From NCBI RefSeq assembly GCF_056712565.1, contig NZ_CM160072.1: a stretch of 64,000 nt of DNA; one strand, given 5' to 3'. How positions within the stretch are numbered: the stretch's first letter is position 1; the number at the start of each line of letters is the position of its first letter. The position numbers and the translations under genes were made by a program. Below are positions 43,364 to 45,769 of this stretch, one piece after another. Below the pieces are notes generated by a model. That model was not told the DNA's origin and made no database searches. It was given only the letters and a program-made list of their open reading frames with translations.

Positions 43364-45769
43364 ATGTCCTTAAAAGGTCTTCGCTTTACGCTGGAGGTTG
43401 ACGGCCAGGAGCCGGACACCTTTGCAGTGGTGAGCTTCCGGTTAATCCAGAACCAGTCTTATCCGTTTGTGATGAGTGTGGATGTCGCCAGCGATTCTTT
43501 TATGCAGACGGCGGAGATGCTGCTGGAGAAGAACGCAACGCTGACTATCTGGCAGGGTGTCATCCCGCTGCGTTATGTCACAGGCGTGGTGGCAGGGTTT
43601 GGTATGCAGGAGAACAACGGCTGGCAGATGCGTTATCACCTGCGTATTGAGCCGCCGTTATGGCGGTGCGGGCTGCGGCGGAACTTCCGTATCTTCCAGC
43701 AGCAGGATATCCGGACGATATCGGCCACATTACTGAACGAGAACGGCGTCACGGAGTGGACGCCGCTGTTTTATGAGGACCATCCGGCGCGGGAATTCTG
43801 TGTCCAGTACGGGGAAAGCGACCTGGCGTTTCTGGCGCGGCTGTGGGCGGAGGAGGGGATTTTCTTCTTTGAGCGGTTTGCGGCGGACAGTCCGGAGCAG
43901 AAGCTGACGCTGTGCGACGATGTGGCGGGGCTGTCACAGGCGGGGGAGCTTCCGTTTAACCCGGACACATCGGCAGGAGCGGAGACGGAGTGTGTCAGTA
44001 TGTTCCGTTATGAGGCGCATGTCCGCCCGTCATCGGTGCAGAGCCAGGATTACACGTTTAAGGTGCCGGACTGGCCGGGGATGTATGAGCAGCAGGGTGA
44101 GAGCCTGAACGGACAGCTTGAACAGTATGAAATATTTGATTATCCGGGAAGGTACAAGGATGAACAGCACGGCAAGGATTTCACGCTGTACCGGATGGAG
44201 AGCCTGCGCAGTGATGCGGAAAAGGCCACAGGGCAGAGTAATTCGCCGAAGCTGTGGCCGGGGACGTGGTTTACGCTGACGGGGCATCCGCAGAAGATGC
44301 TGAACCGTGAATGGCAGGTGGTACAGAGCATTCTGTCAGGAGACCAGCCGCAGGCGCTTCACGGCAGCCAGGGGAGAGGAACCACGCTGGGAAATCAGTT
44401 AGAGGTGATACCGGCGGACCGGACGTGGCGTCCACGGCTGCAAAGCAAACCGAAGGTGGACGGGCCACAGAGCGCCATTGTCACCGGGCCTGCGGGAGAG
44501 GAAATCTTCTGTGATGAACATGGCCGGGTACGGGTGAAGTTTCACTGGGACCGTTATCACGGGATGACGGAGGAGAGTTCGTGCTGGGTGCGTGTGTCGC
44601 AGGCGTGGGCGGGGCCGGGATTTGGTAATCTGGCGATACCGCGGGTGGGCCAGGAGGTGATTGTTGATTTTCTGAACGGGGACCCGGACCAGCCGCTGGT
44701 CATGGGCCGGACGTACCATGAGGACAACCGTTCGCCGGGGGACCTGCCGGGAACGAAGACGCAGATGACGATACGGTCGAAGACCTATAAAGGAAGCGGT
44801 TTTAATGAGTTGCGCTTTGAGGATGCGACGGATAAGGAACAGGTCTATATCCACGCGCAGAAGAACATGGACACGGAGGTACTTAACGACCGGACGACGG
44901 ATGTGAAACATGACCATACGGAGACCATCGGGAACGACCAGAAGATAACGGTGGTGAAGGGGCAGACGGTTCAGGTCGGGACCAGAAAAGAAGGGGGCCA
45001 CGACCAGAGTATCACGGTGGCGAACGACCGGTGCATCACGGTACGTAATGACCAGACGCTGCAGGTGACGAATGACCGGACGGTGAGCGTGAGTAATGAT
45101 GACGGCCTGTACGTCAGAAATGACCGTAAAGTGACGGTGGAAGGGAAGCAGGAGCATAAGACGACGGGGAACCATGTCAGCCTGGTGGAGGGAAAGCACA
45201 GCCTGGTGGTGAAGGGGGACCTGGCGAGGAAGGTGAGTGGCGCGCTGGGGATAAAGGTCGACGGGGATATCGTGCTGGAGAGCAGCAGCCGGATAAGCCT
45301 GAAGGTGGGTGGCTCGTTTGTGGTCATCCATTCAGGGGGCGTGGACATCGTCGGGCCGAAAATCAGTCTCAATAGCGGCGGTAGTCCGGGGACGCCGGTG
45401 CCGGCGCTGCAACCGACGGTGCTGAAGACACTGGGGGATGAGAAGAGTGGTGATGGCAGTGATTCCGGAGAAGAAAATGAAGACTCTGGAGGGAACTGCG
45501 TGACCGGAAGTGGTGGTGATGATCGAGGTGACGATGAGGATGAACCTGAAAAATATACTCTCCAGTTCCATTTTACAGACGATGACGGGATACCGTATTC
45601 AGAAACCCGCTACATTGCCTTCTTTGAGGATGGCACGCAGACCCACGGAGAAACGGATGAAGAGGGGTATACAGAGCGTTTTTTTGTATCTAGCAAACAT
45701 GAAATTAAAGTGAAGTTGCTATTTGCGAATGATGATTTTCTCTCAATGGAAGGACACTATGGACGATAA
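43364..45769 (+). CDS. vgrG: type VI secretion spike protein VgrG with acidic linker and C-terminal extension domain
   Basis: 801 aa ORF; VgrG-like N-terminus (MSLKGLRFTLEVDGQEPDTFAVVSFRL...), gp5-like beta-helix octapeptide repeats (VTNDRTVSVSNDDGLYVRNDRKVTVEGK...), then a Gly/Asp/Glu-rich linker and about 70 aa C-terminal domain. Confidence 0.9.
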   Translation: MSLKGLRFTLEVDGQEPDTFAVVSFRLIQNQSYPFVMSVDVASDSFMQTAEMLLEKNATLTIWQGVIPLRYVTGVVAGFGMQENNGWQMRYHLRIEPPLWRCGLRRNFRIFQQQDIRTISATLLNENGVTEWTPLFYEDHPAREFCVQYGESDLAFLARLWAEEGIFFFERFAADSPEQKLTLCDDVAGLSQAGELPFNPDTSAGAETECVSMFRYEAHVRPSSVQSQDYTFKVPDWPGMYEQQGESLNGQLEQYEIFDYPGRYKDEQHGKDFTLYRMESLRSDAEKATGQSNSPKLWPGTWFTLTGHPQKMLNREWQVVQSILSGDQPQALHGSQGRGTTLGNQLEVIPADRTWRPRLQSKPKVDGPQSAIVTGPAGEEIFCDEHGRVRVKFHWDRYHGMTEESSCWVRVSQAWAGPGFGNLAIPRVGQEVIVDFLNGDPDQPLVMGRTYHEDNRSPGDLPGTKTQMTIRSKTYKGSGFNELRFEDATDKEQVYIHAQKNMDTEVLNDRTTDVKHDHTETIGNDQKITVVKGQTVQVGTRKEGGHDQSITVANDRCITVRNDQTLQVTNDRTVSVSNDDGLYVRNDRKVTVEGKQEHKTTGNHVSLVEGKHSLVVKGDLARKVSGALGIKVDGDIVLESSSRISLKVGGSFVVIHSGGVDIVGPKISLNSGGSPGTPVPALQPTVLKTLGDEKSGDGSDSGEENEDSGGNCVTGSGGDDRGDDEDEPEKYTLQFHFTDDDGIPYSETRYIAFFEDGTQTHGETDEEGYTERFFVSSKHEIKVKLLFANDDFLSMEGHYGR

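Follow-up and report, generated by a model that had tools for sequence, protein, structure and literature searches.

The spike protein VgrG of a type VI secretion system (T6SS) is encoded at positions 43,364 to 45,769 of the DNA analysed here, a stretch of 64,000 nucleotides from contig NZ_CM160072.1 of RefSeq assembly GCF_056712565.1 (hereafter, the window). Its C-terminal tail very probably consists of an acidic spacer and a transthyretin-like (TTR) adaptor that tethers the M35-like metallopeptidase encoded by the next gene, with binding predicted from sequence comparison and from analogy with characterized spikes. Spacer and TTR-like domain together make up the final 111 residues of the protein and are encoded by the 3′ 336 nt of the gene. 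The parts of the module are as follows, where GC3 is the G+C content of third codon positions and ORF an open reading frame.

43364-45769, + strand: vgrG, ORF of 801 codons
43364..45433, + strand: VgrG spike core, residues 1-690, with gp27-like hub, OB (oligonucleotide/oligosaccharide-binding) fold and gp5-like beta-helix
45425..45449, + strand: outer module junction, defined by the GC3 change point and the end of homology with an allele carrying another cargo
45434..45550, + strand: acidic Gly/Asp/Glu/Ser linker (GDEKSG...DEDEPE), VgrG residues 691-729
45551-45766, + strand: TTR-like domain (KYTLQF...GHYGR), VgrG residues 730-801 of 801, 72 residues
45551..45676, + strand: conserved domain core, VgrG residues 730-771 (KYTLQFHFTDDDGIPY...GETDEEGYTE)
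45675..45676, + strand: inner recurrent recombination junction inside the TTR-like domain, at codon 771, after GYTE
45677..45769, + strand: cargo-linked variable part, with the last two beta-strands (RFFV, EIKVKLL), a tail of ~15 residues (FANDDFLSMEGHYGR) and the stop codon
45748..45769, + strand: 3′ end of vgrG with the ribosome-binding site (GGAAGGA, 45748-45754) and start codon (ATG, 45759) of the effector gene, the two genes overlapping by 11 nt (direct reading of the sequence)
45759..46520, + strand: cargo effector gene, 253 aa, named 'peptidase M35' in RefSeq
46573..47292, + strand: putative immunity gene, 239 aa, a hypothetical protein in RefSeq

A transthyretin-like domain at the end of VgrG

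Residues 672-801 match no Pfam family, either in the whole VgrG or in 88 sequences of the domain, and no NCBIfam model was found for the VgrG extension, the effector or the immunity protein. An 88-sequence profile of the domain matches residues 781-833 of VgrG1 from enteroaggregative E. coli (EAEC; 6sjl, E=2.4e-9) and residues 10-66 of the C-terminal fragment of VgrG2b (6h56, E=1.3e-9), both of which have been termed TTR (PMC6899460, PMC10715212). A single-sequence AlphaFold2 model of residues 658-801 was too poor to use (predicted local distance difference test, pLDDT, of 51), and the domain was refolded with an alignment. The resulting model (pLDDT 83) is confidently all-beta over domain residues 1-58 (pLDDT 84-95) and, as far as a predicted model of a very small domain can be classified, forms a small two-sheet beta-sandwich of transthyretin-like fold. 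The last ~14 residues of the domain are predicted to be disordered, the tail having a pLDDT of 46-51 in isolation.

Because the profile matches the TTR domains of VgrG1 and VgrG2b and the modelled domain is all-beta, TTR is here a family assignment rather than an analogy, and on these grounds residues 730-801 are a TTR adaptor of the EAEC VgrG1 family. A preliminary description of this DNA, made from its letters alone, had proposed a compact C-terminal domain of about 70 residues, mentioned transthyretin-like adaptors as an example of what such domains do, and suggested predicting its structure. The domain is present, its predicted structure is the confident all-beta fold described above, and what had been offered as an analogy now has the standing of a family relationship.

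The domain was found in 186 representative clusters at E<=0.001 by an exhaustive profile search of representatives, which was used in place of a word-indexed search with the 72-residue domain that gave just 15 short fragments. It lies at the extreme C-terminus in nearly all true matches, and a few carry it in tandem. Large proteins in which several stretches matched the domain proved to be PD40/TolB-like beta-propeller repeats and were rejected as spurious motif similarity.

Tandem TTR-like domains occupy residues 709-850 of P0046, where they end a full-length VgrG followed by a gene for a 303-aa cargo, and they also occur at the C-terminus of P0049, P0054 and P0065. Such arrangements raise the question of whether one spike arm carries two cargos or holds one cargo at two sites. 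A related domain (LADDDGKPLPETRYELTFSDGSKRQGKTDKDGRG) is also present twice around residues ~2310-2550 of P0126, a giant protein of 2554 aa; as this is not a VgrG, the domain family extends beyond VgrG.

Association of the domain with an M35-like effector

We compared 16 loci encoding homologues of the window effector (24-100% identical), from E. coli, Escherichia sp., Salmonella, Buttiauxella, Trabulsiella, Rahnella, Franconibacter and a metagenome. In each of them, the M35-like gene directly follows a VgrG ending in a TTR-like domain, mostly overlapping its stop codon, and is itself followed by a gene for a signal-peptide-bearing protein. The same layout of VgrG, effector and immunity gene was observed in 10 further loci with other cargos, and a related-locus search with the 16-sequence alignment yielded 9 loci. 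The preliminary description had tied the extension to the downstream HExxH protein, a pairing that recurs in 16/16 loci and on two types of VgrG.

These two types are the Gp5_trimer_C type with an acidic linker, to which the window VgrG belongs, and the DUF2345/T6SS_Vgr type of E. coli T6SS-1 clusters, in which the linker is short and slightly basic. Since their cores share 25.7% identity while their TTR-like domains share 54.7%, and both are followed by the same effector family, sequence comparison indicates that domain and effector family moved together between spike types. This apparent joint transfer is the strongest comparative evidence obtained here that the domain serves the M35-like cargo.

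The motifs HExxH (within TLCHEMSH in the window effector), GGMxTxD and NAYNIERYFE are invariant in the effector family, the HExxH residues H162, E163 and H166 being unchanged in 15 homologues. As a single sequence, the window effector matches Pfam Aspzincin_M35 weakly (E=0.0049); a profile of the 15 homologues matches AsaP1 (2x3a, E=1.2e-6) and a peptidyl-Lys metalloendopeptidase (1g12, E=3e-4), with matches spanning ~80 residues around the active site. An invariant aspartate, D183 of GGMxTxD, lies ~17 residues after HExxH, and the AsaP1 alignment places it off the GTDDLGYG motif. By these matches the cargo is an M35/aspzincin-like HExxH metallopeptidase. The possibility that it is a split-off VgrG2b peptidase was considered and dropped, as the effector profile gives no match to 6h56 at E<=10.

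The last six codons of VgrG (EGHYGR) double as the Shine-Dalgarno sequence and start codon of the effector gene. Overlaps of 8-14 nt between the two genes are also present in the homologous loci, and a terminal EGHYGR recurs in Salmonella, Buttiauxella and another E. coli allele. The 239-aa protein encoded directly after the effector has a hydrophobic, signal-peptide-like N-terminus and is homologous (33% over 90 aa) to the protein following the subtype-B effector; it is a putative immunity protein.

M35-like effectors of T6SS have been encountered elsewhere. For a B2 O2:K1 strain, PMC7904677 describes an M35-like effector, perhaps of another subtype than the window gene, that is encoded at an orphan vgrG locus and is toxic only in the periplasm; the orphan VgrGs of that strain are placed with T6SS2. 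In E. coli PAR, a DUF2345 protein binds an M35 toxin by co-immunoprecipitation (PMC10673891); strain PAR is not among the 60 records taken from 997 that match a T6SS-1-type query locus.

Two recombination junctions within vgrG

GC3 is 0.735 over VgrG codons 1-694 and 0.374 thereafter, with a change point at codons 688-696 (log-likelihood ratio 25.9; 0/2000 permutations as extreme). It amounts to 0.33 in the linker, 0.42 in the C-terminal domain and 0.25 in both the effector and the immunity gene, next to 0.50-0.60 in the flanking housekeeping genes. Amino-acid composition does not account for the fall, because it is in third codon positions. Strain A16 of E. coli has an allele with an M23 peptidase as cargo and without the TTR domain. 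Up to 45429 this allele matches the window at 93.7% identity; beyond that point the two are unrelated, so that homology ends within a few bases of the GC3 change point. Homology between alleles of the T6SS-1-type VgrG likewise stops just before the domain.

A second breakpoint lies inside the domain. The alleles of E. coli 83972, ECO20 and Escherichia sp. MOD1-EC7003 (93-96% identity) lose homology at 45675/45676, and that of Citrobacter sp. wls619 (70.6% identity) breaks at the same base. All four keep the linker and the first 42 domain residues and have exchanged the last ~30 residues together with the cargo. Beyond the junction, the M35-like alleles encode a divergent effector subtype with its own immunity gene (28-29% identity to the window effector overall, 32% over the BLASTP-aligned region), and the Citrobacter allele encodes an unrelated protein of 301 aa. 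With this junction at codon 771, the last ~30 residues of VgrG therefore travel and co-vary with the effector.

The preliminary description had read a drop in G+C within the 3′ segment of vgrG as a recombination junction, with extension and cargo swapped as a unit. Both the drop and a junction coinciding with it are borne out. Exchange as a unit agrees with the outer junction at 45429 but not with the four alleles that break within the domain at 45675/6. We picture the linker, adaptor, effector and immunity gene as a low-G+C cassette that would have been grafted onto a high-G+C spike gene at codon ~690, and the conserved adaptor core as a second homology arm, ending at codon 771, through which tail, effector and immunity gene could be exchanged.

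Strain 83972 retains the window immunity gene, 99.6% identical, downstream of its newer module (locus L002, 7742-8581, matching window 46561-47400), where it is annotated as two short hypothetical ORFs. Judged by its sequence and position, this orphan gene is a typical footprint of cassette replacement.

Spike core and acidic linker

Pfam domains of the window VgrG are Phage_GPD (34-327), Phage_base_V (385-451) and Gp5_trimer_C (468-621), and VgrG structures in the PDB are matched over residues 32-644 only. The core is 95% identical to a VgrG adjoining hcp and tssB in a main T6SS cluster of E. coli (locus L019).

The linker that joins core and adaptor begins at 45434, 6 nt before the start given for it in the preliminary description, which had recognized its acidic character. 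Its 39 residues include 10 G, 9 D, 7 E and 5 S (31 G/D/E/S in total), with a net charge of -14. Among the 24,925 stretches of 39 residues from all ORFs of at least 100 aa in the window, it is the most acidic and the richest in G/D/E/S, the runner-up having a charge of -11. It is predicted to be disordered (pLDDT <50 in the single-sequence AlphaFold2 model). Alleles differ in the length and sequence of the linker and share its composition, with a net charge of -12 to -18 on Gp5_trimer_C-type VgrGs. DUF2345-type VgrGs with the same domain and effector family have no acidic linker, the linker charge there being +1 to +3. On this comparison, the acidic linker goes with the VgrG chassis and not with the cargo, and its most plausible role is that of a flexible spacer, resembling the unresolved linker that carries the EAEC TTR (PMC10715212).

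A model of cargo loading and its alternatives

Two characterized spikes provide the template for a loading mechanism. In EAEC, three Tle1 molecules sit on the sides of the VgrG1 trimer, and the N-terminal strand of Tle1 completes the TTR sheet (PMC10715212, PMC9860674); the linker that bears the TTR is flexible, and PAAR does not depend on the TTR for binding to the tip (PMC10715212). Tle3 has been modelled in the same way as Tle1-TTR (PMC9860674). In A. baumannii, Tae17 is delivered only when VgrG17 has its TTR as well as a short stretch after the TTR that contributes a strand to the effector (PMC11796386).

By homology we infer binding, stoichiometry, the T6SS that fires the spike and the target of the peptidase. 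The effector gene is probably translated in coupling with vgrG. In the VgrG trimer, every protomer would carry one adaptor on its ~39-residue spacer, and each adaptor would capture one copy of the downstream M35-like metallopeptidase through edge-to-edge beta-strand complementation with the N-terminal segment of the effector. In view of the strand completion seen in the EAEC TTR and of the post-TTR segment of A. baumannii, we propose tethering at two sites, in which core residues 730-771 would act as a generic strand acceptor and the strands and tail of residues 772-801 would be specific to the effector subtype. The spacer would let adaptor and cargo lie beside the beta-helix and leave the blunt tip free for PAAR. 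The loaded spike would probably be fired by the T6SS-2-type machine of the strain, after which the peptidase would act in the periplasm of the prey, the attacker being guarded by the signal-peptide-bearing protein encoded next.

Several observations weigh against the proposal that the adaptor tethers the M35-like peptidase. The domain core also precedes unrelated cargos, among others in Citrobacter, Chimaeribacter, Neisseria, a Ntox44 locus, EC958 and APEC (avian pathogenic E. coli) O2-211, so that presence of the core alone does not specify an M35-like cargo. In EAEC and E. coli PAR, DUF2345 takes part in holding the cargo (PMC10673891), and Pfam found neither DUF2345 nor T6SS_Vgr in the window VgrG; both are present in the relatives on the other VgrG type. 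A DUF2345 or COG4532 region ahead of the TTR, as in the VgrGs of EAEC and AIEC, is a trait of the EAEC architecture more than of the TTR domain as such. The co-variation that speaks for tethering, in which identity of the variable part follows effector identity across the 16 loci with a Spearman coefficient of 0.49 (0.03 for the core against the effector), is descriptive only, since pairs of loci are non-independent, and some of it may stem from a common history of recombination instead of selection for binding. Conservation of the terminal EGHYGR is confounded as a protein signal, because the ribosome-binding site and start codon of the effector overlap its codons, and may act at the level of RNA rather than of protein function.

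Homologous vgrG alleles bearing this extension beside unrelated neighbours had been named beforehand as evidence that would speak against docking. Such a case exists in part: the Citrobacter allele has the acidic linker and a core that is 62% identical, followed by the 301-aa neighbour. As the C-terminal part of its domain differs, the allele points to a generic scaffold with a cargo-specific tail and does not argue against docking.

The presence of the core with at least eight unrelated cargo families, by which it is not cargo-specific on its own, could also mean that the domain is a generic immunoglobulin-like or TTR-like module, serving spike assembly or stability, binding a chaperone or meeting the target-cell surface, with the effector loaded through PAAR or along the sides of the beta-helix. 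Similar small beta-sandwiches do occur in adhesins and pilins, a PAAR protein is encoded in the same island, and contacts with the beta-helix stabilise Tle1 in EAEC (PMC9860674). We nevertheless consider this unlikely, for the closest relative in both sequence and structure is a TTR that has been shown experimentally to bind cargo, cargo genes always come straight after the domain, whose variable part follows the effector subtype, and domain and effector transfer jointly between VgrG types. It is less likely still that the acidic linker itself is the docking surface and holds the effector by charge, a notion suggested by the linker being the most acidic stretch in the window and by the salt bridges predicted between the acidic C-terminus of VgrG17 and the basic N-terminus of Tae17 in A. 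baumannii (PMC11796386). The effectors are neutral to acidic, which makes charge docking improbable: net charge is 0 in the window protein (-3 in its N-terminal 30 residues) and -7 to +3 elsewhere. DUF2345-type VgrGs, moreover, carry the same effector family on an unrelated, slightly basic linker, and the linker is free to drift in sequence and length between alleles.

Hardly any weight attaches to the remaining two explanations. The region has an unusual composition, and A/T-rich codons specify Asp, Glu, Lys and Asn, so the fall in G+C might stem from low complexity or from relaxed selection at the 3′ end, with no junction in vgrG. The fall from 0.735 to 0.374 is, however, in third codon positions and was equalled in 0/2000 permutations; it lies within a few bases of the point where homology with a 93.7%-identical allele ends, and the same domain is found on a second type of VgrG, with 26% identity in the core. 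An 'evolved' VgrG with a toxin as its C-terminal domain would fit a common pattern, VgrG extensions often being toxins, and PMC11148199 regards toxicity of a TTR domain as not formally excludable. The folded part of the extension of the window VgrG is all-beta and ~58 residues long, a predicted beta-sandwich that matches no Pfam family and in which we found no catalytic motif; its homologues include non-toxic adaptors, and a separate effector-immunity pair follows it, the HExxH protein being a distinct ORF. Both readings appear extremely improbable beside that of a TTR adaptor tethering the adjacent M35-like peptidase.

Among the loci with other cargos, the T6SS-1 VgrGs of EC958 (L037) and APEC O2-211 (L039) share the DUF2345 region with the M35-carrying allele and end in diverged TTR-like domains. 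The cargo encoded after the EC958 VgrG is an SLT (soluble lytic) transglycosylase, that after the APEC O2-211 VgrG is an N-acetylmuramoyl-L-alanine amidase, and small immunity-like genes are present. No NCBIfam name was obtained for any of the seven alternative cargos tested.

A possible docking motif at the cargo N-terminus

Cargos encoded after TTR-bearing VgrGs belong to at least six unrelated families, many of which share the pattern T-[ST]-G, 8-10 residues, [VI]-x-[QK]-[QK]-[IV]-[TS] near the N-terminus. It was seen at the window locus and at loci L024, L029, L030 and L032-L036. Its position in the window effector is given below.

45777-45839: cargo motif in the window effector, residues 7-27
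45810..45836, + strand: candidate N-terminal docking strand CVKEQKITD, effector residues 18-26

A 9-mer matrix derived from the non-M35 cargos finds its best site in the effector at residues 18-26 (per-site p=3.8e-5 against the ORFs of the window), and 6/9 M35-type effectors score similarly. A hidden Markov model of the motif from non-M35 families missed the window effector, its best hits having E ~0.8 and falling on other ORFs, and the motif is absent from the SLT and amidase cargos. The Tle1-like protein of EC958, included as a Tle1 control, is a DUF4123-dependent paralogue with no match to the Tle1 chain of 6sjl.

[quoted passage not shown] That these spikes go beyond the known TTR model in two respects, with a generic docking tag at the cargo N-terminus and an adaptor split by a recurrent recombination site at codon 771, is an idea we hold tentatively and with rather more doubt than conviction. 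If it were true, the cargo tag might serve to discover further T6SS cargo effectors in the manner of MIX, FIX and RIX, and the first 42 domain residues would constitute a homology arm, with the last two strands and the tail belonging to the exchangeable cargo cassette. An adaptor split in this manner resembles the conserved motif bordering the toxin tips of Rhs and contact-dependent inhibition (CDI) proteins. Any novelty might be restricted to the shared N-terminal motif and the recombination site within the domain.

Genomic setting and distribution

The 5.2 kb around the 3′ end of vgrG are 100% identical to chromosomes of extraintestinal pathogenic E. coli (ExPEC) of phylogroup B2, the matches including APEC O1, UTI89, S88, IHE3034 and the type strain ATCC 11775. 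The segment comprising the vgrG 3′ end and the effector gene is at least 80% present in 486/5,426 complete genomes. The PAAR-vgrG island is inserted between ansP/yncG and yddH/nhoA, a site which we take to be the K-12 location of rhsE. Annotation was transferred from the RefSeq record of APEC O1 (window coordinate = locus coordinate + 38499), and the outer elements of the island are these.

43061..43345, + strand: gene for a 94-aa PAAR protein that caps the spike tip, ending 18 nt before vgrG (RefSeq annotation)
47467..47610, + strand: ISAs1 transposase remnant, marking the right-hand end of the island (as annotated by RefSeq at the identical locus in APEC O1)

The PAAR protein is identified by NCBIfam NF033420, T6SS_PAAR_dom (E=5.5e-47; 157.8 bits against a cutoff of 124). 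Between yncG and the PAAR gene lies an AT-rich non-coding stretch of ~540 bp (42520-43060, G+C 0.30-0.38), probably the island's left boundary together with its promoter region. The yncG gene (glutathione S-transferase family, 41920-42520) is split between two ORFs. In APEC O1, whose sequence is identical, RefSeq lists it as frameshifted, and it is intact in O145:H28 and strain GN25. E. coli O145:H28 RM13516 (locus L003) contains a decayed island matching window 43000-44829 and 45714-47400, in which vgrG is truncated at the position matching 44829, a gene with a C39 peptidase domain and a small ORF are inserted, and the M35-like gene is in fragments.

Significance and comparison with known systems

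These analyses explain how a metallopeptidase toxin is likely loaded in a widespread orphan PAAR-vgrG island of ExPEC, and they assign a VgrG C-terminal region without a Pfam model to the TTR adaptor family. They also place the likely determinant of specificity in the ~30 C-terminal residues of VgrG and the ~30 N-terminal ones of the effector, a location of use for retargeting T6SS spikes and for predicting cargo from vgrG sequence. The tail of the window VgrG is a new example of the established TTR-adaptor mechanism, its effector family already has some experimental support, and the current picture of T6SS cargo loading is left unchanged.

The reference system is VgrG1-Tle1 of EAEC (6sjl, 6sk0; Flaugnatti et al. 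2016, 2020, as related in PMC10715212 and PMC9860674), whose TTR domain is ~26-28% identical to that of the window. EAEC VgrG1 has the COG4532 architecture, whereas the window VgrG has neither DUF2345 nor the helix region and has a strongly acidic linker. The cargo is an M35-like metallopeptidase instead of the phospholipase Tle1, and the island is an orphan PAAR-vgrG locus outside the main T6SS cluster. A. baumannii VgrG17-Tae17 combines a TTR sandwich completed by the effector with a cargo-specific post-TTR segment, an arrangement comparable to the core and tail described here (PMC11796386). It differs in the type of VgrG and in the effector, a peptidoglycan hydrolase with an immunoglobulin-like domain and LysM; its essential G1069 and W1075 have no demonstrated counterparts in the window, and the evidence is experimental there and comparative here.

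P. aeruginosa VgrG2b (6h56; PMC6899460) likewise has a TTR of the same family, followed by a periplasmic HExxH metallopeptidase and a downstream immunity protein. Its peptidase is fused to VgrG, unlike the separate gene of the window, and recombination at the 3′ end of vgrG is known to split it into an ORF of its own (PMC6899460). The two peptidases are not demonstrably of the same family, because the effector profile finds M35 enzymes and not VgrG2b at E<=10. The nearest relatives in genomic organization are the VT-module vgrG islands of E. coli (Ma et al. 2018, via PMC6730261) and 'effector locus1' of B2 strain BCE049 (PMC7904677), which are orphan PAAR-vgrG-effector-immunity islands of pathogenic E. 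coli like that of the window; no description of the adaptor domain, the linker or the junctions was found in the parts of these sources considered here. As presented there, BCE049 effector locus1 pairs a T6SS2-related VgrG with an M35-like effector that is toxic in the periplasm (PMC7904677).

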